Source: Coriobacteriales bacterium (GTDB taxonomy: Bacteria; Actinomycetota; Coriobacteriia; Coriobacteriales; QAMH01). From it: a stretch of DNA of 64,000 nucleotides. This document shows positions 6,011 through 30,893 of the stretch, piece by piece (positions within the stretch are counted from its first letter, which is position 1; every line of letters starts with the position of its first letter). The stretch covers positions 4,555-68,554 of the forward strand of contig JBJEHN010000073.1 of the NCBI GenBank assembly GCA_051876105.1, written 5' to 3'. A program made the translations under genes and the position numbers. The notes under the pieces are model-generated. The model was given only the letters and a program-made list of their open reading frames with translations. It made no database searches and was not told the origin of the DNA.

Positions 6011-9000
6011 CTACTGGGCGCCGCTGAACGACTCCACGTCGCGCGGCGCGTTCGGCCCGCTGGCGTTGCGGATGGCTTGGTCGAGCTTCTGGCTCACGAG
6101 CTTGGAGACGCCGTCGCTGCGCATGGACACGCCGTAGAGGAGGTCTGCCATCTCCATGGTGCGGCGCTGGTGGCTGATCATGATGACCTGGGTGGTGGTG
6201 CGGATGGAGTCCAGGTACGAGAGCAGCCTGCGGAGGTTGGTGTCGTCGAGGGCGGCCTCGACCTCGTCGAGGATGTAGAAGGGCGTGCTGTTGACCTTGT
6301 ACACCGCGAACATGAGGGCCAGGCTCACCAGGCTCTGCTCGCCGCCCGAGAGCAGGCTCTGCTTGCGCACCGCCTTGCCGCGCGGCTGGGCGTGGACCTC
6401 GACGCCGGTCGTCTCCGGGTTCTCCGGGTCGGTGAGCTCGAGGTGGCCCTGACCTCCGGGGAACAGCGACTGGATGATCTCCTGGAAGTTGGCGTTGACC
6501 TGGTTGAAGGTCTCCATGAAGCGGTTGCGCATCTTGCGGTCGATGGCGGCGACGATGCGGTCGAGCGCCTTGGCCGCGCCCTCGAGGTCCTCGACCTGGA
6601 TGGCGATGAAGTCGCGGCGCTCCTTGAGCTTGCGGTACTCCTCAACGGCGACGGGGTTGACGCTGCCGAGGCCCTTGATGCGCTTGGCGAGCCTGTCGCG
6701 GCGCTGCTCGAGCTCCACGCGGTCCTCGGGGGCCGGGATCTCCAGGGCGATGTCGAGCAGGACGCCGTTTTCCTCGGTGATGACCTTGATGGCCTGCTCG
6801 ACGCGCACCTCGAGCTTGGACTTCTCGATGCGCGCCTGCACCAGGTCCTCGCTGGCGGCGTCGAGCTGGGCCTGCTGCTCCTGGGCGGCGCGGCGCGCCT
6901 CCTCGATGGTGTTGCGCAGGTCGCCCTGACCCGCCTGCTCGAGCTGTGCGCGGCCCCTCAGCATCTCGGCCTTCTCGCGCACGATGTCGCGCAGCTCGGT
7001 GAAGACCTGGTAGAGGGGCTCGACCCGCAGGCGCAGGATCCCGAGATTGCGCTCGGTCTGGTGGGAGACCTCGAGCTGGCCCTCGAGCTGCTCGATGGTG
7101 CGGGAGCTGGTGTCGCAGGTGGCGCGCAAGTGGCGTTCGCGCTCGCGCACGGTGGCGAGCTCGACCTGGAGCTGCTGGATGCGGGTAGTGGAGGCGGTCT
7201 CCTCCTGGAAGAGCCTGGTGCGCTCGACCTTGGCAGCGGCGGCCTGCTCCTCGAGCTCGGCGCGCTCTGCGCAGAGCTGCTCCTTGCGCTCCTGGAGCTC
7301 TGCCACGCGCTGGCGCGTCTCCTCGGTCTCGCGCGCGACCTTCTCGCGGCGCAGGCTTATCTCCTCGCGCTCCTGCATGAGGCCGGTGATGCTCGCCTCG
7401 AGGCGGCCCACCTCCTCGCGCAGGGAGTCGCGCTCGCCGTTGAGCTGCGCGATCGACTGCGAGAGCTCGAAGTCGTCTGCCTGAGCTACTTGGAGGCGCG
7501 CCTCGGCCTGGGAGAGCTCCTCGAGCGCGGCCTCGACGGCGGTCTGGGCGGCGGGGACCTCCTCGCCCAAGGCAGCGATGCGGCGCTTGCGGGCGAGCAC
7601 GCCCTCGGTGTCTGCAGAGGGCTGGCCGATGCAGATCTTGCCGCTGGGCCACACGACCACACCCTCGCGCGTAACGAAGCGTGCGCCTGCGCCGGCGCCG
7701 ACGGCGCTGAGCGCTTCCTCGAGGCTGTCTGCCAGGTAGACGTCGCCCAGCAGGACCTCTGCCACAGCCGCGTTGCGCGGGTCGACGTCGAGCAGCTCGA
7801 GCAGGCGGGTCCCGCGCGCGGCGGCGCCCTGCGCCTTAGCGCAGCCCTCGAGGGGCACGAGCGTCAGCTCGCCGCCCTCCTCGTCGCCGGCGAGCAGGCG
7901 CTCGGCGAGCTTGAGGGCGCTGGAGGTGTCTTGCGTGGCCAAGCCGAAAAGGTCCTCGCCCAGCAGCAGCTCGACGAGGTGCTCGAGCTCTGCAGGGGCC
8001 CTCAGCAGCTCGCTCAGGGGGGCGACGATGCCATCGCCGTCTACGCGCTGGGCGAGGGCGCGGCTCAGCAGGGGGCTCGCCTCGTCGAAGGCGCGGTCGA
8101 CCTCCTTGAGGCCCCTCAGCTCCGCTTGGAGCCCGGCGGCGGCATCGCGCTTGTCGCCCACCACGCGGCGGGCGTCGTCGACGAGGCGCACGCGTTTGTC
8201 GATGTCGCTTTTTGCCAGGGCGGACTCGTGTTGCAGTTCCTCGAGGCGCTCCTCGAGCTCACCGATGCGCGAGCGGCGCGCGGCAAGCGTGGCCTGCGTT
8301 GCGCCGAAGCTGTCGTCGATCTGCTGGGCGCGGCGCTGCAGCAGGTCGTCTTCGACGTCTGCGGTTGCCAGGCTCTCCGTGGCCTTGAGCGCCTGCAGGG
8401 TGAGCTCGTCGATCTGGCGCTCGTGAGCGCGCAGCGCGCCGTTGAGGCGCCCGAGCTCGATGTCGTGGCCCTTGCGCTGGCGGCGGGTCTCCTCGAGGGC
8501 GATGCTCGCCTCCGAGACCTGGCCCTGCACGGCCTTGAGCGAGGCCTCGGCCTCAGCCTGATCCACGCTCGCTCTCTCGAGGCGCTCGCGGGCCTCGGCC
8601 AGGCCCCTCTCGCTCTGGTGAATGGTCTGGCGCAGCTCGGAGAGGCGGGTCACCATGTTGCGGCCCTTCTCCTCGAGCAGCAGCATGCCGCTGTCGAGCT
8701 GGGCGAGCACCATCTGGCAGCGGCGGCGCTGCTCGGCCAGGTCGCCCACGAAGAGGCCCTTCTCCTCGAGCAGGCGCTGGAGCTTCTCGAGCTCGCGATT
8801 GCGCTCGTCCAGGCGGTAGCGCACCAGCTCGACACCGGCGTCCGCTTCCCTCTCGCGCAGCTCGAGGGCCTCCCACTCGCGCTGCAGCGAGCGCAGGTCG
8901 TCGACGGCGAGGGTCAGGTTGACCTCCTTGAGCTCGCCGGCGAGCTGCTCGTACTGCTTGGCGCGGCTGGCCTGGCGCTCCAGCGGCCTGAGCTGGCGGT

Positions 9001-9595
9001 CGATCTCTGCAGCGATGTCGTTGACGCGCTCGAGCTCCGCGTCCATGTTGCGGAGCTTCTTGGCGGCGCGCTCCTTGCGCTTCTTGTGTTTGAGGATGCC
9101 CGCCGCCTCCTCGATGAGCACCCTGCGGTCCTCCGGGCGCGACTGCAAGAGCGTCTGCAGCGAGCCCTGGGAGATGATGGAGTGCGCGTCGCGGCCCAAG
9201 CCGGAGTCGTTGAGGACGTCGAGGATGTCCATGAGGCGGCTGGGACTGCCGTTGATGAGGTACTCGCTGTCTCCGCTGCGGTACATACGGCGCGTGATGA
9301 CGACCTCGTTGAAGTCGAGGGGGAGCGTGCCATCGCTGTTGTCGAGCACGAGGTCGACCTCCGCGAGGCTCACCGCCTGGCGGGCGCTGCTGCCTGCGAA
9401 GATGACGTCTTCCATGGCCTGGCCGCGCAGCTGCTTGGCGCTCTGCTCGCCAAGCACCCACAAGACTGCGTCGCTGACGTTGGACTTGCCGGAGCCGTTG
9501 GGACCTACGACGACGGTCATGCCGGGCTCGAGCCTGAGTACGGAGCGATCAGCGAACGACTTGAATCCTTTGAGAACAAGCGATTTGAGATACAC
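6011..9595 (-). CDS. smc: Chromosome segregation protein SMC
   Basis: About 1195 aa: N-terminal YLKSLVLKGFKSF..GPNGSGKSN, long coiled coils, a hinge, and C-terminal LSGGEQSLVSLALMFA..ILDEVEAALD. The likely start is GTG 9595 (AAAGGG 6 nt upstream). The track uses TTG 9601. Confidence 0.96.
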   Translation of the reverse strand: MYLKSLVLKGFKSFADRSVLRLEPGMTVVVGPNGSGKSNVSDAVLWVLGEQSAKQLRGQAMEDVIFAGSSARQAVSLAEVDLVLDNSDGTLPLDFNEVVITRRMYRSGDSEYLINGSPSRLMDILDVLNDSGLGRDAHSIISQGSLQTLLQSRPEDRRVLIEEAAGILKHKKRKERAAKKLRNMDAELERVNDIAAEIDRQLRPLERQASRAKQYEQLAGELKEVNLTLAVDDLRSLQREWEALELREREADAGVELVRYRLDERNRELEKLQRLLEEKGLFVGDLAEQRRRCQMVLAQLDSGMLLLEEKGRNMVTRLSELRQTIHQSERGLAEARERLERASVDQAEAEASLKAVQGQVSEASIALEETRRQRKGHDIELGRLNGALRAHERQIDELTLQALKATESLATADVEDDLLQRRAQQIDDSFGATQATLAARRSRIGELEERLEELQHESALAKSDIDKRVRLVDDARRVVGDKRDAAAGLQAELRGLKEVDRAFDEASPLLSRALAQRVDGDGIVAPLSELLRAPAELEHLVELLLGEDLFGLATQDTSSALKLAERLLAGDEEGGELTLVPLEGCAKAQGAAARGTRLLELLDVDPRNAAVAEVLLGDVYLADSLEEALSAVGAGAGARFVTREGVVVWPSGKICIGQPSADTEGVLARKRRIAALGEEVPAAQTAVEAALEELSQAEARLQVAQADDFELSQSIAQLNGERDSLREEVGRLEASITGLMQEREEISLRREKVARETEETRQRVAELQERKEQLCAERAELEEQAAAAKVERTRLFQEETASTTRIQQLQVELATVRERERHLRATCDTSSRTIEQLEGQLEVSHQTERNLGILRLRVEPLYQVFTELRDIVREKAEMLRGRAQLEQAGQGDLRNTIEEARRAAQEQQAQLDAASEDLVQARIEKSKLEVRVEQAIKVITEENGVLLDIALEIPAPEDRVELEQRRDRLAKRIKGLGSVNPVAVEEYRKLKERRDFIAIQVEDLEGAAKALDRIVAAIDRKMRNRFMETFNQVNANFQEIIQSLFPGGQGHLELTDPENPETTGVEVHAQPRGKAVRKQSLLSGGEQSLVSLALMFAVYKVNSTPFYILDEVEAALDDTNLRRLLSYLDSIRTTTQVIMISHQRRTMEMADLLYGVSMRSDGVSKLVSQKLDQAIRNASGPNAPRDVESFSGAQ

Positions 9596-9661
9596 GCGCA
9601 ACCCTTTGTTTGCAGGTGGGCATAACTGATTGATTCTATCACGGGCCTGCCAGCGACCGGC

Positions 9662-10408
9662 TTACTTGACAACCCCCAGGGTCTCGAGCGCCTGCTGCGC
9701 GGCAGCGGCCTCGGCCGCTTTCTTGCTGTGACCCTCTCCTGTGCCGATGAGCTCGTCGCCGCAGTACACGGCAGCCTGGAAGACACGGTCGTGCGGGGGG
9801 CCGATGATGTCTGTGATGCGGTAGGTGGGCTTGCGGCGGCGCGCCTGCAGGTACTCCTGCAGCGAGCTCTTGGGGCTCTCCGGCTCGGTGGCGATGTCGC
9901 GGCTGATGTGGGGGCCGAGCGTCCTCAGGACCCACTCGCGCGCGATGTCGATGCCGGCGTCGAGGTAGAGTGCGGCGACGATTGCCTCGTAGACGTTCTC
10001 GAGGGCGCTGTGCAGGCCGCGGCCCTGGGTGCCCGCCTCAGAGTCGCCGAAGATGATGCACTCGCCCAAACCCAGGTCGCCGCACACCTGCGAGAGGCTC
10101 GCGCCGCTCACCAGGCTCACCTTGATGCGGGTGAGGCCGCCTTCCTCCAGATCCGGGAACAGCCCGAAGACCTCCTCGGCGATGATGGCGCCGAGGATGC
10201 TGTCGCCCAGGAACTCCAGGCGCTCGTAGTTGTCCCCGCTCTTGGTGTGCTTGACGTAGCTGGGGTGCGTGAGCGCGACCTGCAGGAGGCCGGGGACGTT
10301 GAACTCGCGGCCGATGATCTCCTGGGCCTGCTTGATGCGCTGCTCATGCTCCGGGCTGACCTCAGGGATGTTGAGCTTGGAGAGCAGCTTGCTGGGGCGG
10401 CGCGCCAT
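9662..10408 (-). CDS. rnc: Ribonuclease III
   Basis: 248 aa from MARRPSK; signature ERLEFLGDSILG plus a C-terminal dsRBD (GEGHSKKAAEAAAAQQAL). Its ATG overlaps the plsX TGA (ATGA). The 474-aa track ORF is an in-frame upstream extension that overlaps plsX. Confidence 0.93.
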   Translation of the reverse strand: MARRPSKLLSKLNIPEVSPEHEQRIKQAQEIIGREFNVPGLLQVALTHPSYVKHTKSGDNYERLEFLGDSILGAIIAEEVFGLFPDLEEGGLTRIKVSLVSGASLSQVCGDLGLGECIIFGDSEAGTQGRGLHSALENVYEAIVAALYLDAGIDIAREWVLRTLGPHISRDIATEPESPKSSLQEYLQARRRKPTYRITDIIGPPHDRVFQAAVYCGDELIGTGEGHSKKAAEAAAAQQALETLGVVK

Positions 10409-20515: not shown

Positions 20516-22846
20516 CTACGCGGGGTCCTTGCTGCGCAGGGGCATGTGGGCGATCACGTCTGCGTCGAGGCCGGTGAAGAGGCCCTCCTCGTAGAGGTCG
20601 ACGGCACAGCTCGCGATCATGGTGGCGTTGTCCGTGCAGGCGTGGGCATCCGGCATCACTACGCGTACCCCGCGGCGGCCGAGCTTGTCGGCGAGTGCGG
20701 CGCGCAGGGCGGGGTTGCTCGCCACGCCGCCGCCCATGCAGAGCGTGCGGCAGCCCGTTTCCTTGCATGCCTGCCAGGCCTTGTGCACCTGCACATCCAC
20801 GACAGCCGCCTGGAAGCTCGCAGCCAGGTCGGGGATGTTCACCGGCTCGCCCGCGGCGTTCCTCTTGTTGATGTAGGTGACCACTGCCGTCTTGAGCCCG
20901 CTGAGCGAGAAGCGCAGATCGCCGCTGTGCATCATCGCGCGCGGGAAGTCGATGGCCTGCGGGTCGCCCTGCGCGGCCAGGCGGCTGATGATGGGGCCGC
21001 CTGGGTAGCCCAGTCCCAGGGCCTTGGCAACCTTGTCGAAGGCCTCCCCCACCGCGTCGTCGAGGGTCGAGCCCAAGACGGCATAGTCGCCCCACTCCCT
21101 CACGTGCACGAGCATGGTGTGCCCGCCGCTCACCAGCAGGGCGATGAAGGGGGTCTGGATGTCCGGCGCCACGTAGCGGTTGGCGTAGAGGTGGCCCTCC
21201 AGGTGGTTCACCCCGATGAGCGGCAGCCCGGTGGCAAAGCACAGCCCCTTGGCAAAGGCCAGGCCCACCACCAGCGCGCCCACGAGGCCGGGACCCTGGG
21301 TCACCGCCACGGCGGAGAGGTCCTCCCAGCGCGCGCCGGCCTGCCCCATCGCGTCCATCACCACAGGGACGATGGCCTCGGTGTGCTTGCGCGAGGCGAT
21401 CTCCGGCACGACGCCGCCAAAGCGGCTGTGGAAGTCGATCTGGCTGGCCACCTGGTCTGCCCAGATGCGGCGCTCTCCGTCGACGACGGCCGCGGCGGTC
21501 TCGTCGCAAGAGCTCTCGATAGCCAGGATGAGGGGGCGGGCCGAGGCCGCGCAGGCACCCGCCTGCGCACGCGGGCCGCCGCCGGTCTCCATGCGCGCGC
21601 TGGCCCCTGAGGTGGCATAGCTGTAGGTCAAGGGCAGCTGGCCGCGCATGATCAGGGCGTCTGCGCGGTCGTGGTAGTAGCGGGGGCGCACCCCCACGTC
21701 CTCCAGGCCCAGCCGGTGGTAGAGCGCGATGGCAGGGGCGTTGTCTGTGCGGACCTCGAGGGTCACCGTCTCCGCACCTAAGGCGCGGGCGTCTGTGGCC
21801 ACGCGCTCGATCAGGCGCTGGGCGATGCCTTGGCGGCGCTGGGCCGGGTCGACGCAGATGCTGAAGATGCAGAGCTCTCCATCGACCACCTGGCCGCCGG
21901 CACAGCCAACGAGACGCCCCTCCTTGCGGGCGACCCACCAGCTGCGGTCCGGGCGGCCGACCTCGTCAGCCAGCTTGCCCTCCGTCCAGGCGTCCTGCGG
22001 CATCGCGCGCTGCTGGAGCCCGACCGCGGCAGCGACGTCGTTCACCGAGAGCGGGTGCAGGAAGAGGCCTCCCACGGCGCGGCCGTCTGCCACGCCGCTT
22101 TCGGGCAGGGCGTCTGCGATGCCCAGCCGCGCGCGTTCCGCCTCCTCGGCGTCGGAGAGGCGCGTATAGACAGGCAGCAGGACCGCCGGGTCCCCGCTGC
22201 CCAGCTCGCCGGCGCGGCGCAGGGCCGCATAGGCCTGCAGCAGGCCCTGGCCGTCGGGCGTCCACAGCTCCTCGGGGCCGATCGTGAAGGGGCCCTCCCC
22301 AAAGCATTCCGCGTGCTTGCGCAGGCCGTCGCCCAACAGCACCAGCTCCTCGCCGGCCTCGCGCCACGCCTGCGCGACCTGCGCAGGCTTGCAGACGCTG
22401 TCGAGGTCGAGGCGGCTGACGCCCTCGTCATCCAGCTCGAAGCGCACCGGGTAGACCTCCTTGCGCATGGCGTCCTCGACGACGCCCACGCGGCCGCGCA
22501 GGCCGGCGCGCCAGGCATGCCAGGCCACAGCGTCGATGGTCGACACGCCGTGGACGGGGCAGCCCAGGCCACAGGCGAGCCCCTTGGCTGTGGCGATGCC
22601 GATGCGCACGCCGGTGAACGAGCCCGGCCCCCTGCCCACGACGACCACCCCGACGTCGCGCGGGGCCAGGCCGCTGCTCTCCAGCAGCGCAGCTGCCCTG
22701 TCGAGGAGGACCTGGTCGGACTGGCGCGGCGCAGGTGCGTCGCCGCTGGCGATGACGCGGGGGTCGCTGGGCGCCACATCGCCCACGCAGAGGGCGAGCA
22801 TGTCGCTGGCGGTGTCGAAGGCCAGCGCGATCTTAGCTTGGGTCAC
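20516..22846 (-). CDS. tsaD: Triple fusion: TsaB (YeaZ) + RimI-type GNAT acetyltransferase + TsaD (Kae1/Gcp), for t6A biosynthesis
   Basis: One 776-aa ORF. Residues 1-240 are TsaB-like (GRGPGSFTGVRIGIATAKG). Residues about 258-405 are GNAT (QRRQGIAQRLIE..TLEVRTDNAPAIALYHRLG). Residues about 437-776 are TsaD (LAIESSCDETAAAVV, GVNHLEGH, GGGVASN). Confidence 0.9.
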   Translation of the reverse strand: MTQAKIALAFDTASDMLALCVGDVAPSDPRVIASGDAPAPRQSDQVLLDRAAALLESSGLAPRDVGVVVVGRGPGSFTGVRIGIATAKGLACGLGCPVHGVSTIDAVAWHAWRAGLRGRVGVVEDAMRKEVYPVRFELDDEGVSRLDLDSVCKPAQVAQAWREAGEELVLLGDGLRKHAECFGEGPFTIGPEELWTPDGQGLLQAYAALRRAGELGSGDPAVLLPVYTRLSDAEEAERARLGIADALPESGVADGRAVGGLFLHPLSVNDVAAAVGLQQRAMPQDAWTEGKLADEVGRPDRSWWVARKEGRLVGCAGGQVVDGELCIFSICVDPAQRRQGIAQRLIERVATDARALGAETVTLEVRTDNAPAIALYHRLGLEDVGVRPRYYHDRADALIMRGQLPLTYSYATSGASARMETGGGPRAQAGACAASARPLILAIESSCDETAAAVVDGERRIWADQVASQIDFHSRFGGVVPEIASRKHTEAIVPVVMDAMGQAGARWEDLSAVAVTQGPGLVGALVVGLAFAKGLCFATGLPLIGVNHLEGHLYANRYVAPDIQTPFIALLVSGGHTMLVHVREWGDYAVLGSTLDDAVGEAFDKVAKALGLGYPGGPIISRLAAQGDPQAIDFPRAMMHSGDLRFSLSGLKTAVVTYINKRNAAGEPVNIPDLAASFQAAVVDVQVHKAWQACKETGCRTLCMGGGVASNPALRAALADKLGRRGVRVVMPDAHACTDNATMIASCAVDLYEEGLFTGLDADVIAHMPLRSKDPA

Positions 22847-22852
22847 AGGGCA

Positions 22853-24133
22853 TCAGGCTCCAGAGAGGTCGGTGCGGATACTCATACCCTCGGTCAGGGA
22901 GGCGCCCTGGACGACCAGTTGGCCGTCTGGCGCGGTCCCGATCTGGGTCACGTTGCATTGCTTGACAGTAGCCGCGTCGACGACGGCCTCGACGTACATG
23001 CCGAAGCGGCCGTTGGCCACGGCTGTTGCGGGAACGTAGTATACCGTCCCGTAGTCGAGGACGCTGATCTTGGCAGAGACCGCCATGCCCAGCTCGAGGC
23101 CCTGGGGCGCCTCGTCGAAGGCCAGCGTCACGCCGTAGAGCGTCCCGTTGCCGGCGGCGTCCCCCATCACCGCGCTGCTAGAGCTGCCAGCGGAGCTCTT
23201 GGCCGTGGGCGTGTCAGCCACCTTGAGGACGCTTGCCGCGAGCACCTGCCCGGGCAGGGCGCTGCAGGTGACGCTTGCGAGCTGGCCCTTGCTGATGCTG
23301 CCCACCTTCGACTCGGGCACCTGCACCACGCAGTTGACCTTGGCGGTGTCCACCACTGTCATCAGCGTCCCCGCTGTAGCGGGGTACAGCTGCTGGCCGG
23401 GCTCAACCTGCAGACCCGCGACGGTGCCCCCTTGGGGCGCGGTCACGGCCAGCTTGCCCTGCTCGCGCTTTGCCTTGGTGAAGGCAGAGCGCGCCTTGGC
23501 GGTGTCCTTCTCCGCCTTGGAGAGCGCCGCCTCCTGCTGGCTGGCTACCGCCTGGGCGTCGTCGACGGCAGCCTGGGCGCTCTCGACGGCCTCCTGGTAG
23601 GGAGTCTCGTCGAAGGGCTCATCGGGCCGCTGCGCGGCGGTGTCGCGGGCGGCCTCGAGGTTGCCCTGGGCCTTCTCGAGCCGCTCGGCAGCCCCTGCAA
23701 GCGCCTCCTGCGCCGCAGCGAGCGCGTCTTGCGCCTCGCGCTGGGCGGCCTGGCACGCACGGTAGTCGGCCAGGGCCTCCGCCAGCGCCTGGCTCACCGC
23801 CTCGTTCTCGAGCGTGAGCAGCAGGTCGCCCTTCTTGACGGCATCGCCTTCCGCAACCTCGACGGAGAGGACGGTCCCCTCCACCTCGACGCAAACAGCC
23901 GAGACGCTGGCAGACTGGATCGCGCCGGTGACGTCGAGGTCGCTGGAGTAGCTGCTCGCGGCAAGGAGCATGGTGTCGTACTGCGCGGCAGGGCGGCTCT
24001 GGTTGGCAGAGAGCGTCTTGGTGAGCAGGTATGAGCCGCCCCCGAAGATGAGGACGGCGGCGGCGATGGCGATCCCAGCCGCCAAGCCGACCTGGCGGTT
24101 GCGAGCGCGGATCTTCTCGCGGGATGCTGGCAT
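22853..24133 (-). CDS. HlyD/membrane-fusion-protein family adaptor (periplasmic adaptor subunit), with no adjacent transporter
   Basis: 426 aa: N-terminal TM segment, lipoyl-like VEVAEGDAVKKGDLLLTL, a long Ala/Gln/Glu coiled coil, and beta-barrel-like C-terminal domains. It ends 6 nt before the tsaB-rimI-tsaD start. Confidence 0.8.
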   Translation of the reverse strand: MPASREKIRARNRQVGLAAGIAIAAAVLIFGGGSYLLTKTLSANQSRPAAQYDTMLLAASSYSSDLDVTGAIQSASVSAVCVEVEGTVLSVEVAEGDAVKKGDLLLTLENEAVSQALAEALADYRACQAAQREAQDALAAAQEALAGAAERLEKAQGNLEAARDTAAQRPDEPFDETPYQEAVESAQAAVDDAQAVASQQEAALSKAEKDTAKARSAFTKAKREQGKLAVTAPQGGTVAGLQVEPGQQLYPATAGTLMTVVDTAKVNCVVQVPESKVGSISKGQLASVTCSALPGQVLAASVLKVADTPTAKSSAGSSSSAVMGDAAGNGTLYGVTLAFDEAPQGLELGMAVSAKISVLDYGTVYYVPATAVANGRFGMYVEAVVDAATVKQCNVTQIGTAPDGQLVVQGASLTEGMSIRTDLSGA

Positions 24134-24185
24134 GTGCCCCTCCAGGTGAAGAATGCGTACCCGTGGATTCTAGGGCATGGGGCGC

Positions 24186-24929
24186 CTAAGCGGTGCCGGC
24201 GGCAAAGGGGGCGCCCTGGCTGCTGCTGGAGGAGGAGCCCTGCTGGCCCTGGTTGGGGGATCCCTGTTCCTGGGTGGAGCCCTGCGTGCCGCCCTGGGAG
24301 CCGCTGCCGGAGTAGACCTGGCTGTAGCTGCTGTTGGGCCCGGAGCTCTGGCTGTAGTACACCGGTGTGTAGAAGAGCCGCGTGCAGGCCCCCATGAAGA
24401 GGTTGATCAGGAGATTGAGCGCCAGGAAGGCGATGATCCAGGTCATGCAGCCGCCGCCGAAGACCGTGGTCTGCTGGCGCTGCTGCTGTTGGCGCTGGTA
24501 CTGCTGTTGCTGCTGGCTGCGCTGCTGTTCGTAGTAGCTCGAGTCGTGCTGGGAGCCCTGGTTGCCGTACCAGCTGCGGAAGAACTCCTCGAAGGGGTCG
24601 TAGTACTCCCCCTGGCCCGAGCCGCCGGAGCGGGTGTAGCGGCCGGTGGTGGGGTCGTAGGTGTAGGTCTGGGTGTTGGCATAGCCGCCAGAGCTCTGCT
24701 GGGCATAGGGGTTGGATGCCTGCTGGCGCGCGCGGGGGCCGTACGGGGTGCCGTTGGTGATGGCGTCGTAGGCGGCGTTGACCTCGGCCATCTTCCTGGC
24801 GGCTGCCTCGTCGCCGGGGTTGAGGTCGGGGTGGTACTTCTTTGCCAGCTTGCGGTACGCGCGGGTCACCTCGTCCTTCGAGGCGCCCTCGTTCAAGCCC
24901 AGGACCTTGTAGGGGTTTGTCTCTGCCAT
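24186..24929 (-). CDS. Membrane-anchored J-domain (DnaJ-like) protein with Q/S/G/Y-rich low-complexity regions
   Basis: 247 aa: [36 protein letters not shown] (HPD motif), a Q-rich stretch ([15 protein letters not shown]), one TM segment ([20 protein letters not shown]), and an S/G/Q-rich tail. Confidence 0.85.
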
Positions 24930-25001
24930 AGTGGTTCCCTATCTTACAGGGATTGCTTGAAGATTGGCTGAATGCCGCTCAACATGACGGCAACAGCTGC
25001 C

Positions 25002-25418
25002 CTAGCTCAGCGTTACGAGGCGCGAGCCGTCGTCGCGCACGCGCACGTCCACATAGCGGCAGCCTGACGGCAGGGCGTCGGGGAACTTGTCGCCCCACTC
25101 CACCAGGCTCACCGCCCCGCTCTCCGTAAGGCCGTACCAGTCGACGTCCTCGAGCTCCCACTCGCTCTCCAGGCGGTAGAGGTCCCAGTGCAGCAGCGGG
25201 AGCCGGCCGCTGTCGTAGCGCTCGACGATGGCGAAAGTGGGGCTCGTGACCTGCTCGGTCACGCCGAGCCCCTCGGCAAAGCCCTTCGAGAGGTGCGTCT
25301 TGCCGGCCCCGAGGTCGCCGGTGAGCACAAAGCAGCTGTCTGGCGCCGCCTCGAGCGCCAGGCGGCGCCCCAGCTCTATGGTCTCCTCGACGCTGTTGGA
25401 GATGAATGTCTCACCCAT
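25002..25418 (-). CDS. tsaE: tRNA t6A ATPase TsaE
   Basis: P-loop GDLGAGKTHLSKG and HWDLYRL. ATG 25418 has GAGGAG 7 nt upstream and overlaps the udg stop by 8 nt. Confidence 0.9.
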   Translation of the reverse strand: MGETFISNSVEETIELGRRLALEAAPDSCFVLTGDLGAGKTHLSKGFAEGLGVTEQVTSPTFAIVERYDSGRLPLLHWDLYRLESEWELEDVDWYGLTESGAVSLVEWGDKFPDALPSGCRYVDVRVRDDGSRLVTLS

Positions 25419-26007
25419 CGGCGCGCTCCTCACCCCCGCCGGCGGAGAGCTTGGCATCGCGCTCGAGCAGGGCGCGCAGCAGGTCGAAGTCCTCCTCCAA
25501 AGCGGCGACCTTGGAGCGATCGTAGATCGCTGCCGCCGGGTGGAACATGGGGATCACCCGCAAGGGGCCGGCGCTCTGCACGCGGCCGCGCAGGCGGGTG
25601 ATCCCCTCGTTGGTCTGCAGGATGAACTTGGTGGCGAAGTTGCCCAGGGTCACGACGACGGTGGGGTGCACGCTGGCAACCTGCTGGCGCAGCCAGGGCG
25701 TGCACGCCTCTATCTCCTCCGGGCGCGGGTCGCGGTTGCCCGGCGGGCGGCACTTGAGGATGTTGGCGATGTAGATGTCCTCGCGCGGGATGCCGGCGCG
25801 CTGGAGCATCTGGTTGAGCAGCTGGCCGGCCGCGCCCACGAAGGGCTCGCCCTGCAGGTCCTCGTTCTTGCCAGGGCCCTCGCCTACGAACATCACGTTG
25901 GCATGGGGGTTTCCCACGCCGAAGACGAGGTTGGTGCGCGTGGCGGCGAGCGCGCACTTGGCGCAGCCCGCGCACTCGCGCTCTATGTCTGCGAGGGGGC
26001 GCGGCAT
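25411..26007 (-). CDS. udg: Family-4 uracil-DNA glycosylase (4Fe-4S)
   Basis: 198 aa from MPRPLADIERECAGCAKCALAATRTNLVFGVGNPHANVMFVGEGPG..., with HPAA near the C-terminus. Its ATG overlaps the alr TGA. Confidence 0.9.
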   Translation of the reverse strand: MPRPLADIERECAGCAKCALAATRTNLVFGVGNPHANVMFVGEGPGKNEDLQGEPFVGAAGQLLNQMLQRAGIPREDIYIANILKCRPPGNRDPRPEEIEACTPWLRQQVASVHPTVVVTLGNFATKFILQTNEGITRLRGRVQSAGPLRVIPMFHPAAAIYDRSKVAALEEDFDLLRALLERDAKLSAGGGEERADG

Positions 26008-27323
26008 CAGACGTACACCCTGGGCAGGCGCAGGCCGAAGAGGCAGGTTATCTCGTGGGTGATCGTGCCCAGGGCCTCGGCCATGGTGTCTGCCGTGAGC
26101 TCGTAGTCGCCCTGGGTGCCGATGATGACGACCTCGTCGCCCGGCTGGGCGCCGCCGCCCTTGATGCCCGTCACGGAGTAGCCCAAGGGGATCTCGATCA
26201 TCATCTGGTCCATGCAGATGTTGCCCACCTGGCTCACCGGGCGGCCGTTCCACAGCACCTTGAAGCCCTTCTTGGTGAGCTCTCGCCTGACACCATCTGC
26301 GTAGCCGAGCGGCAGGGTGGCGATCTGCACGGGCTTGCCCACGCGGTAGTTCATGCCGTAGCTCACGCCCTCGCCCACCTGGGGCTCCTTGACGGCGGAG
26401 ATCTCTGCCTTGATGCTCATGGCCGGCTTGAGGACGACGCTGCCGCCGGAGACCTCGGGGTTGTAGTCGAGGCCGTAGAGGCAGATGCCCAGGCGCACCA
26501 TGTCGTAGTGCACCTGCGGGTAGCGGAAGATCGAGGCGCTGTTGGCGGCATGGACGATGCCGGGGTTGAAGCCCGCCTCGCGGATGAGGCGCAGGGCCTC
26601 CTCGAAGCGGCGGTGCTGCTCGTAGAAGTCGAGCTGCTCGGCGCAGTCGGCGGTGGCGAAATGCGTGAAGGTACCCTCGTACTTGAGCGCCCTGTGGAAC
26701 GAGATGCCCTTGATGAAGTCGCCCGCATCCAGGTAGAAGACGCCGATGCGGTTCATGCCGGTGTTCACCGCCAGGTGGAAGGGGGCCTCCCTGCCCTGGA
26801 GGTCTGCCTGCTCGGCGTAGTCGAGGGCGAACTCCTGGGTGTAGACGGCGGGGGTGATGCTGTAGGCCAGCAGCAGCGGGATGGTGCGCTGCGGGGGCTG
26901 GGCCAGCAGGAGGATGGGCTCTGTGAAGCCGGCCTGGCGCAGCTCGACGCCCTCTTCCGGGGTGGCCACAGCAAGGCGGTCGGCACCGGCGTCGAGTGCG
27001 GCGCGCGCAACGCGGACGGCACCGTGGCCGTAGGCGTCTGCCTTGACGACGGCGCAGAGCAGGCGCTGCGGGCCGCAGGCGCGGCGGGCCTGCTGCACGT
27101 TGAACGCGATGGCGGAGAGGTCGATCTCTGCCCAGGCGCCGCGCGGGACGCTCTGGCGGGTGTAGGAGTCGTGGAGCGTGACGCTGGGCGCGCTCGCAGC
27201 CCGCTCGACCTCAGCCCCCAAGGTGAGCTGGGTGTCTCCAGCACTGTCGAAGGGCCTGTCCCCTGCCGCTGTGTCGTTGGGCAGCTTGGGGTTGGAGCCG
27301 AAGTAGTTGATGGAATCAGTCAT
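26007..27323 (-). CDS. alr: Alanine racemase (with about 60-aa N-terminal extension)
   Basis: VVKADAYGHG (PLP lysine) and the typical C-terminal ..VCMDQMMI... block. The start MTDSINYF at 27323 overlaps the nnrD stop by 8 nt. Confidence 0.92.
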   Translation of the reverse strand: MTDSINYFGSNPKLPNDTAAGDRPFDSAGDTQLTLGAEVERAASAPSVTLHDSYTRQSVPRGAWAEIDLSAIAFNVQQARRACGPQRLLCAVVKADAYGHGAVRVARAALDAGADRLAVATPEEGVELRQAGFTEPILLLAQPPQRTIPLLLAYSITPAVYTQEFALDYAEQADLQGREAPFHLAVNTGMNRIGVFYLDAGDFIKGISFHRALKYEGTFTHFATADCAEQLDFYEQHRRFEEALRLIREAGFNPGIVHAANSASIFRYPQVHYDMVRLGICLYGLDYNPEVSGGSVVLKPAMSIKAEISAVKEPQVGEGVSYGMNYRVGKPVQIATLPLGYADGVRRELTKKGFKVLWNGRPVSQVGNICMDQMMIEIPLGYSVTGIKGGGAQPGDEVVIIGTQGDYELTADTMAEALGTITHEITCLFGLRLPRVYV

Positions 27324-30842: not shown

Positions 30843-30893
30843 AAGAATGGGACAGTGGGGACAGTCCCCACTGTCCCCCACTGTCCCATTCTT
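30843..30893. repeat. Palindromic repeat element, copy 1 (variant with an internal 10-nt duplication)
   Basis: AAGAATGGGACAGTGGGGACAGTCCCCACTGTCC[CCCACTGTCC]CATTCTT. It shares a 32-nt core, AATGGGACAGTGGGGACAGTCCCCACTGTCCC, with the copy at 62779-62819. It lies between the rpmA terminator and the glmS upstream region. Confidence 0.85.

Follow-up and report, generated by a model that had tools for sequence, protein, structure and literature searches.

Why should two genes for membrane proteins stand inside a gene set for the synthesis of N6-threonylcarbamoyladenosine (t6A)? The question is raised by a stretch of 64,000 nucleotides from a Coriobacteriales bacterium (contig JBJEHN010000073.1; the whole stretch is hereafter called the window), in which a gene encoding a J-domain protein (the J protein) and a gene encoding a membrane-fusion adaptor are found between tsaE and a fused tsaB-rimI-tsaD gene. 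The two co-directional open reading frames (ORFs) had been pointed out in an earlier note on this DNA, and their coordinates and lengths were confirmed here. The two proteins fall into known superfamilies and already bear generic annotations, and the arrangement is a conserved trait of a Coriobacteriales-type lineage and not a peculiarity of this genome. We favor, with roughly even chances of being right, the explanation that the J protein tethers DnaK to the membrane, that the adaptor serves a MacB-type partner encoded elsewhere, and that the J protein may chaperone the assembly of the adaptor.

The J-domain protein

Both ORFs carry a strong coding signature, with a GC content at third codon positions (GC3) of 0.93 in the J gene and 0.88 in the adaptor gene, in a sequence of 67% GC, and both are preceded by sites resembling a ribosome-binding site (RBS), AGGGAA in the case of the J gene and GGAGG in that of the adaptor gene. 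ORFs on the opposite strand over both genes (e.g. 24177-24971, plus strand) failed the coding-pattern filter (GC3 above 0.75 and GC content at second codon positions, GC2, below 0.6) and were rejected as high-GC artefacts. The J gene comprises the following features, with the confidence (pLDDT) of the AlphaFold2 (AF2) model where it applies; the transmembrane helix is abbreviated as TM helix.

24186..24929, minus strand: gene of the membrane-anchored J protein, 247 aa, stop codon included (Pfam DnaJ; GC3 0.93)
24750..24929, minus strand: J domain (aa 1-60), with the HPD tripeptide H33-P34-D35 (Pfam, alignment; AF2 pLDDT 80-92)
24450..24749, minus strand: G/Y/Q-rich linker (aa 61-160) (alignment, AF2, composition)
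24378..24449, minus strand: TM helix (aa 161-184) (AF2 pLDDT 86-88, topology, alignment)
24189..24377, minus strand: Ser/Gly/Gln-rich disordered tail (aa 185-247) (AF2 pLDDT 40-50; S 26%)

The J domain with its HPD motif, the Gln-rich tract, the single TM helix and the Ser-rich tail that had been read from this ORF in the earlier note are all borne out by Pfam, by alignment and by the AF2 model. Residues 5-58 match the Pfam family DnaJ (PF00226) at 1.3e-17, with 64.1 bits vs a gathering score of 27.8, an identical protein (P0001) carries the annotation 'J domain-containing protein [Coriobacteriales bacterium]', and the J domain with its HPD tripeptide is invariant in 25/25 aligned homologues. 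The AF2 model, with a mean pLDDT of 61, consists of the J domain (1-60), a beta-hairpin (88-101), a helix (112-124) and the TM helix (161-184), the remainder being disordered. Based on this architecture, the J domain is likely to face the cytoplasm, and the Ser-rich tail, whose length and sequence differ among orthologues, is likely to be extracytoplasmic. We hypothesize that DnaK would be recruited to the inner membrane face, and activated there, by the HPD-bearing J domain and a DnaJ-like linker, with the single, highly conserved TM helix as anchor and the disordered tail pointing outward.

The linker contains a conserved NGTPYGPRA motif, the predicted beta-hairpin 88-101, the conserved helix 112-124 and a membrane-adjacent Q/R-rich tract, and its composition is Q 22%, Y 12% and N 3%. 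In the whole protein, Q reaches 13.0% vs 4.0% in the window background, Y 8.5% vs 2.5% and S 11.3% vs 5.3%, in accordance with the earlier remark that so Q/S/Y-rich a sequence is unusual for this genome. Because the NCBIfam DnaJ models align residues 7-140 to the J domain and G/F region of DnaJ, part of this odd composition, which the earlier note called prion-like, is that of the usual flexible J-protein linker, and, judged from its sequence, the linker is in part an ordinary one in which Tyr and Gln abound where Phe is usual. The segment YYDPFEEMFRxW is conserved across the 25 aligned homologues, and its helix is similar to motifs known from G/F regions, D-I/V-F and 'DPF..FF'.

Like DnaJ and CbpA (class A and class B), the J protein begins with a J domain, after which comes a flexible linker rich in Gly and aromatic residues, but a TM helix takes the place of the zinc finger with its CxxCxGxG repeats and of the C-terminal client-binding domains. 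The model of canonical class A DnaJ (TIGR02349) aligns with aa 7-140 only, at 63.5 bits vs a cutoff of 377. DjlA of E. coli and Caulobacter crescentus likewise crosses the membrane once, carries an HPD motif in a J domain on the cytoplasmic side, and localizes DnaK activity to the membrane. In contrast to the J protein, however, its TM helix is at the N-terminus and its J domain at the C-terminus, and it lacks the Ser-rich external tail, the Cys-flanked TM helix and the DnaJ-like G/F linker; the DjlA model NF006948, with its reversed domain order, scores 29 bits vs a cutoff of 162. No match to the J protein was obtained with the PADLOC defence-system models. More than 100 homologues of similar length were found, of which 25 were aligned (36-85% identity to the window protein); some clusters of such proteins hold >160 members, and sequences of the bacteria concerned are abundant in metagenome data. 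When aa 96-247, the C-terminal half, were compared with 1.84 billion representative proteins, only nine matched, all of them from the same family and 224-284 aa long, and this module is therefore lineage-restricted.

The TM helix is strikingly conserved in the alignment (G-C-[LMF]-[RKT]-W...IINL..N...G-G-C-S), with conserved Asn residues inside and the only two Cys of the protein, C161 and C182, conserved at its flanks (C-x20-C), in a spacing that is fixed in ~110/120 homologues. It is very improbable, in our view, that this helix, which ends in L/M/F-G-G/A/S-Cys, is an internal lipoprotein signal formed by an h-region and a lipobox, with C182 lipidated and the chain cleaved by Lgt and Lsp, and we give hardly any credence to the consequence that the J-domain part, as a 'signal peptide', would be split from a lipid-anchored Ser-rich peptide. 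The motif before C182 does fit the core of the PROSITE lipobox pattern in most high-GC homologues, and the Cys is usually followed by Ser and then by a Ser-rich stretch, as in Gram-positive lipoproteins. However, no [LVI][ASTVI][GAS]C lipobox ends an N-terminal signal peptide in this protein, the lipobox-like motif being at residue 182, and we know of no precedent for a lipobox ~180 residues from the N-terminus. In addition, the -2 residue in the low-GC clade is Arg or Ser (FLRGC, LMSSC, FRGC) while the Cys is still conserved (lineage labels such as 'low-GC clade' and 'Collinsella-like' rest on GC content and synteny), C161 on the cytoplasmic side is equally conserved and is unaccounted for by a lipobox, and a folded mature domain after the Cys is absent. 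None of the readings found accounts for both Cys. A correlation of other residues of the helix (Trp after the first Cys, the second Asn, Gly at -2) with the presence of the adaptor was suggestive and was dropped, the number of proteins being too small; P0043, without the Trp, and P0048, without the second Asn, are exceptions, and both have the adaptor.

The adaptor

The second gene follows the J gene after 52 nt, and its features are these.

22853..24133, minus strand: gene of the adaptor, 426 aa, a MacA-type membrane-fusion (periplasmic adaptor) protein, with the GGAGG RBS 6 nt upstream
24005..24100, minus strand: N-terminal TM anchor (aa 12-43), with a conserved IFGGGxYL motif (AF2 helix, alignment)
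23456..23803, minus strand: alpha-helical hairpin (aa 111-226) (AF2 helices H111-168 and H177-226, pLDDT >90)
23141..23197, minus strand: Ser-rich low-complexity loop in the beta-barrel domain (aa 313-331) (pLDDT <50; 14% identity)

An adaptor of the HlyD/membrane-fusion family with an N-terminal TM anchor had been proposed earlier, and this proposal is upheld by the Pfam families HlyD_D23 (7.6e-18, 65 bits vs 30) and HlyD_3 (9e-15, 55.8 vs 22.2), by the NCBIfam model TIGR01730 RND_mfp ("efflux RND transporter periplasmic adaptor subunit"; 103.7 bits vs a curated cutoff of 94.9) and by an AF2 helix at residues 12-43; the short basic N-terminus before this anchor is presumably cytoplasmic. The AF2 model (pLDDT 81.9) displays the TM helix, a lipoyl (barrel-sandwich) domain split by the hairpin, a beta-barrel and a membrane-proximal domain (MPD). 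In a Foldseek comparison with the PDB the best matches were MacA chains in MacAB-TolC (9qgy_G, 3.9e-23; 5nik_D, TMt 0.68), with 376-383 aligned columns, E-values from 1e-20 to 4e-23 and TMt values of 0.67-0.68. Likewise, a profile of the adaptor orthologues found MacA first by sequence (4dk0, 1.7e-34), its match to E. coli MacA (9qgy/5nik) spanning positions 22-411 with the TM helix included, and the Pfam families BSH_YknX and Beta-barrel_YknX match adaptor orthologues. The more specific models gave low scores, 31.6 bits vs a cutoff of 342 for the MacA equivalog NF008606 and 45.5 bits vs 208.65 for the HlyD adaptor of type I secretion, TIGR01843. The matches of a profile search in an index of 5.8 billion proteins were for the most part generic members of the HlyD family, and known orthologues were missed by its word index. 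We rejected a role in defence, the PADLOC matches to the adaptor being weak (JetC 1.9e-05, LmuB 0.0025), confined to the hairpin region (aa 109-232) and read as coiled-coil noise.

In eight adaptor orthologues the lipoyl, barrel and MPD segments are 31-47% identical to the window protein, and the hairpin is the least conserved part, with a mean identity of 20%, a length of 4 to 144 residues and acidic or Ser/Thr-rich inserts at its tip; the loop at aa 313-331 is also variable, and longer in some orthologues. In MacAB-TolC the barrel and the MPD face the inner-membrane transporter, and the hairpin contacts TolC in diderms. The conserved parts of the adaptor are the membrane-nearest ones and the hairpin varies freely, which we count in favor of a MacB-type partner. 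The adaptor, with its dispensable hairpin, would most likely form a ring on an unlinked ABC partner of the MacB/FtsX type. MacA, YknX and Spr0693 share with the adaptor the N-terminal TM anchor, the lipoyl, beta-barrel and MPD domains and the long hairpin of the window protein, and for YknX and Spr0693 the setting is monoderm as well; unlike these proteins, the adaptor family has a hairpin that is hypervariable or absent, and low-complexity Ser-rich segments inserted into the barrel and at the tip of the hairpin. BesA of Borrelia, which is among the structural matches, is hairpin-less like the 303-305-aa orthologues (L003, L095-L102), but it is an RND adaptor of a diderm, and the window adaptor has a full hairpin. 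The Ser/Thr/acidic low-complexity inserts, located at the hairpin tip (23600-23630, minus strand) and in the barrel loop, reach 40-70 residues in L006, L086 and L092. In this they are like the external Ser-rich tail of the J protein, and such segments may be glycosylated or may span the wall.

Conservation of the gene pair

Ten further loci with distinct members of the J family were obtained by exact-protein look-up or by a genome scan, and a metagenome scan with the C-terminal module of the J protein yielded at least eight loci of one lineage (60-63% GC). The order J gene-(adaptor)-tsaB holds in 17/17 loci, window included, and in 14 of the 17, which represent eight lineages including that of the window, the J gene and tsaB have an orthologous adaptor between them (the adaptor is present in L001, L003, L006, L086, L088, L092 and L094). 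All six metagenome loci that extend far enough carry an adaptor, 303-305 aa long and hairpin-less. In the genome scan with the full J-family alignment the matches listed were mostly canonical DnaJ or unrelated small J proteins of Firmicutes, and among the 80 loci listed an adaptor was seen in L006 only.

The linkage of the J gene to tsaB is kept despite changes upstream, where L006 has AddAB-like genes, L087 an insertion of a radical-SAM gene and L090 the clp/ispDF genes. Compared over the same genome pairs, identity to the window decreases from TsaBD (53-82%) to TsaE (50-74%), the J protein (42-56%) and the adaptor (27-45%), the adaptor being the fastest-evolving of the four genes. The J protein is the constant element of this arrangement, and the adaptor a frequent, fast-evolving companion. 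L006 (CAVFDV010000003.1) is labelled Oscillibacter sp. MSJ-31, but with 68% GC, an arrangement of the Coriobacteriales type and a J protein 49% identical to that of the window, this contig is probably mis-binned or mislabelled.

The missing neighboring pump

The absence of a nearby pump, already remarked upon in the earlier note, was confirmed by a crude motif scan (not a hidden Markov model search) of the 64-kb window and its 52 likely genes: Walker A and ABC signature motifs occur together only in a 1196-aa protein, which we take to be SMC from its length and motifs, and the same scan found no multi-TM permease flanking the adaptor. In addition, a transporter gene (ABC, RND or MFS) adjoins the adaptor in none of the 14 loci (the window and 13 related ones), a count that tests linkage only and was made on contig fragments. 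In contrast, characterised MacA-like proteins adjoin a MacB-type ATPase and permease, and the nearest non-orthologous relative of the adaptor examined (P0130) is itself encoded in a classic adaptor-ABC_tran-MacB_PCD/FtsX operon. Adaptors are widespread in Gram-positive bacteria, many of them in operons with macB homologues, and the TM segment and cytoplasmic N-terminus of MacA are needed for the stimulation of MacB (PMC5985334). We infer that a partner of the MacB/FtsX type is probably encoded elsewhere in the genome.

The same lack of an adjoining pump, together with the dispensable and highly variable hairpin, would also be expected if the adaptor-like protein were an extracytoplasmic scaffold or sensor of the wall zone, coupled to the J protein through their TM helices, which we regard as unlikely. 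In such a module the state of the envelope would control DnaK activity at the membrane, or DnaK would control the assembly of the scaffold, an idea that we hold to be equally improbable. The unusually well-conserved TM helices and the exposed Ser-rich low-complexity segments found in both proteins fit this scheme, and what adaptors do in organisms that lack an outer membrane is acknowledged to be an open question (PMC5985334). Nevertheless, the barrel and the MPD, with which MacA contacts MacB, are among the best-conserved parts of the adaptor, the closest relative that was examined is linked to a pump, and the lack of a pump next door is weak evidence. To our knowledge, no pump-free function is established for the adaptor fold. 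In a related form, the J protein and the MacA-like protein would be a dedicated two-component membrane complex, an extracytoplasmic ring driven or controlled by DnaK without a classical pump, and to this we also assign a low probability; that such a ring serves, for example, envelope proteostasis or wall-zone assembly, with coupling through the J protein's TM helix, which bears Asn and is flanked by Cys, is a no less speculative extension.

Partners or neighbors

The earlier note could name no system in which a membrane-anchored J protein is paired with an adaptor. The literature searched holds no description of this J family, of tsa operons with a J gene among their members, or of a J protein paired with an adaptor in these bacteria, but a precedent exists in Caulobacter, where DjlA and AcrA form the same protein pairing (PMC10754441). 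Pull-downs with DjlA-HA recover AcrA, directly or indirectly, overexpressed DjlA lowers AcrA aggregation by ~40%, efflux by AcrAB-NodT is enhanced by DjlA, and complementation by DjlA requires the HPD motif; djlA is co-induced with the acrAB-nodT operon, although it is not described as a member of it (PMC10754441). A second likeness is offered by YknW-YknX of Bacillus, in which a small membrane protein is also encoded beside a Gram-positive adaptor. YknW is a co-transcribed accessory membrane protein that may influence the oligomerisation of YknX; in contrast to the J-adaptor pair, no J domain is mentioned for YknW in the review, and the yknWXYZ operon includes the pump (PMC5985334).

Based on these precedents, and on the conservation described above, the explanation we favor can be set out as follows. 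The two genes would be an old, lineage-wide insertion into the actinobacterial housekeeping cluster tsaE-tsaB-rimI-tsaD(-groES-groEL). Of the two, it would be the J protein that is older or under more constraint, with a function independent of the adaptor, and, where the adaptor is present, it would plausibly aid the membrane insertion or the assembly of the adaptor or of its pump, as DjlA does for AcrA in Caulobacter. The lack of a terminator within the cluster and the tight spacing to tsaB are counted in favor of this explanation.

Several observations weigh against it. The adaptor is absent in L087, L090 and L091, in which the J gene abuts tsaB with gaps of 0-5 nt; these loci have a GC content of 41-47% vs 54-68% in the adaptor-bearing loci, and are probably a single clade, in which the adaptor was either lost or never acquired. 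More remote J relatives (36-38% identity) in two loci of 48% GC, L005 (8001-9096) and L089 (7001-8187), also lack an adaptor, which weakens the notion of an obligate J-adaptor module. There the J relative is followed by a two-TM zinc-ribbon protein of 154-164 aa, with an overlap of 20 nt in L005, in a setting of cell-wall genes (DUF348-G5-3D, UDP-galactopyranose mutase, GT2 glycosyltransferases, GH25 lysozyme, and an ABC-2 exporter in L005). The J-adaptor junction tolerates insertions, since two loci carry unrelated genes in it: an XRE-type helix-turn-helix gene (9007-9321) in L001, and in L006 (J gene 7001-7693, adaptor 8574-10073) a BrnT-family toxin gene (Pfam 1.4e-14) with a CopG-like antitoxin candidate (below cutoff), at 7776-8295 within the 880-nt spacer. 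The whole glmS-tsaD region is syntenic among the related loci, and the adjacency of the two genes may be a matter of inheritance only. No dnaK gene was found in the 64-kb window, and the proposed partner pump would lie beyond the window and the related contig fragments to which our search extended. The 303-aa hairpin-less orthologue (L003, L095-L102) cannot form a long conduit, and a role as pump adaptor may fail in some lineages. Finally, the observations cover the identities of the genes, their domain architecture, their synteny and the lack of a linked pump, and an interaction between J protein and adaptor goes a step beyond them, as do the topology, the recruitment of DnaK and the unlinked pump.

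Some of these observations would be expected if the two genes were independent neighbors, the J protein being a general recruiter of DnaK to the membrane (e.g. for quality control of membrane proteins or secretion) and the adaptor serving an unlinked efflux or resistance pump of the MacB type, which we consider possible, though clearly less probable than the explanation we favor. They would then share their site only through insertion into a strongly conserved, constitutively transcribed housekeeping cluster, a step to which the same subordinate likelihood is given. Besides the three loci with a J gene and no adaptor, the different partner of the distant J relatives, the inserted XRE gene and BrnT/CopG-like cassette, and the syntenic region, the spacers point in this direction, those between J gene and adaptor (21-880 nt) being longer than those into tsaB (-11 to +48 nt). 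Nevertheless, the J-adaptor order is kept in eight lineages although adaptor identity falls to 27-45%, and it is kept under the changed upstream context of L006; in addition, DjlA-AcrA of Caulobacter indicates that a functional link of this kind is possible. Of the linked module envisaged in the earlier note, the conserved order and the J-adaptor-tsaB neighborhood (14 loci, eight lineages) therefore stand, but not a constant pairing, given the adaptor-less loci (the three of low GC, L005 and L089) and the small unrelated genes between the two in two lineages.

The surrounding gene cluster

On the minus strand of the window the genes follow in the order glmS, acpS, nnr, alr, a gene of the uracil-DNA glycosylase (UDG) family, tsaE, J gene, adaptor, tsaB-rimI-tsaD, tilS, hpt and ftsH. 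The features that flank the pair are these.

25002..25457, minus strand: tsaE, ATPase subunit of t6A synthesis (Pfam TsaE 3.4e-34; TIGR00150 3.8e-31, above cutoff)
24930..25001, minus strand: tsaE-J spacer, 72 nt, with the AGGGAA RBS-like site
20516..22846, minus strand: tsaB-rimI-tsaD triple fusion, 776 aa (TIGR03725, TIGR01575 and TIGR03723, all above cutoff)

The start of the longest tsaE ORF is at 25457, and the second Met, at 25418, is an equally plausible start. The fusion comprises TsaB (8-229), RimI (273-400) and TsaD (440-751). A single TsaB-RimI-TsaD protein of ~770-840 aa is encoded in the window, L001, L086, L088, L090-L092 and L094; in L003 and L095-L102 the tsa fusion has ~620 aa and a GNAT domain was not detected in it, and L087 has tsaB-rimI and a separate tsaD. 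The UDG-superfamily (uracil-DNA glycosylase-like) gene (25411-26253, minus strand) lies between alr and tsaE, overlaps the tsaE start, and keeps this position in most related loci. The 280 aa of its longest ORF probably include too much at the 5' end, because this ORF overlaps alr and the homologues have 184-219 aa.

The 6-nt gap between adaptor and tsaB had suggested co-transcription, and this remains likely, as no terminator-like site was found on the minus strand between glmS and ftsH; nor did the tsaE-J spacer show promoter-like or terminator-like consensus matches when these were looked for. The sole terminator-like site between 18.5 and 31.5 kb (30849-30877, minus strand) is a 13-bp GC-rich hairpin with a T-rich tail just upstream of glmS, and it is probably there that the preceding rplU-rpmA unit ends. 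Rfam detected no glmS ribozyme and no regulatory RNA in the gene cluster. A CIRCE/HAIR heat-shock operator 5' of the J gene was rejected, only a weak imperfect inverted repeat being visible by eye. Downstream of tsaD the window and L001 continue with tilS-hpt-ftsH, and most related loci with groES-groEL, for which reason a link to FtsH was also rejected; the order tsaD-groES-groEL is, as in Mycobacterium, the typical actinobacterial one. In this analysis there was no sign of a role of the J protein or the adaptor in t6A synthesis, and the location in the cluster would most simply provide constitutive co-expression with housekeeping and chaperone genes.

Significance

If the two genes are mere neighbors, the outcome is a refinement of annotation, with an uncharacterised J family that marks the tsa-groESL cluster of this lineage. 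A conserved adaptor without an adjacent pump and with a dispensable hairpin, found fixed beside a lineage-specific membrane J protein, bears on the question of what adaptors do in monoderms (PMC5985334). If the J protein does chaperone the assembly of the adaptor or its pump, the single experimental precedent, DjlA-AcrA of Caulobacter, would be extended to monoderm bacteria, and the J-adaptor pair would be a genetically compact system in which to test chaperoned adaptor assembly.

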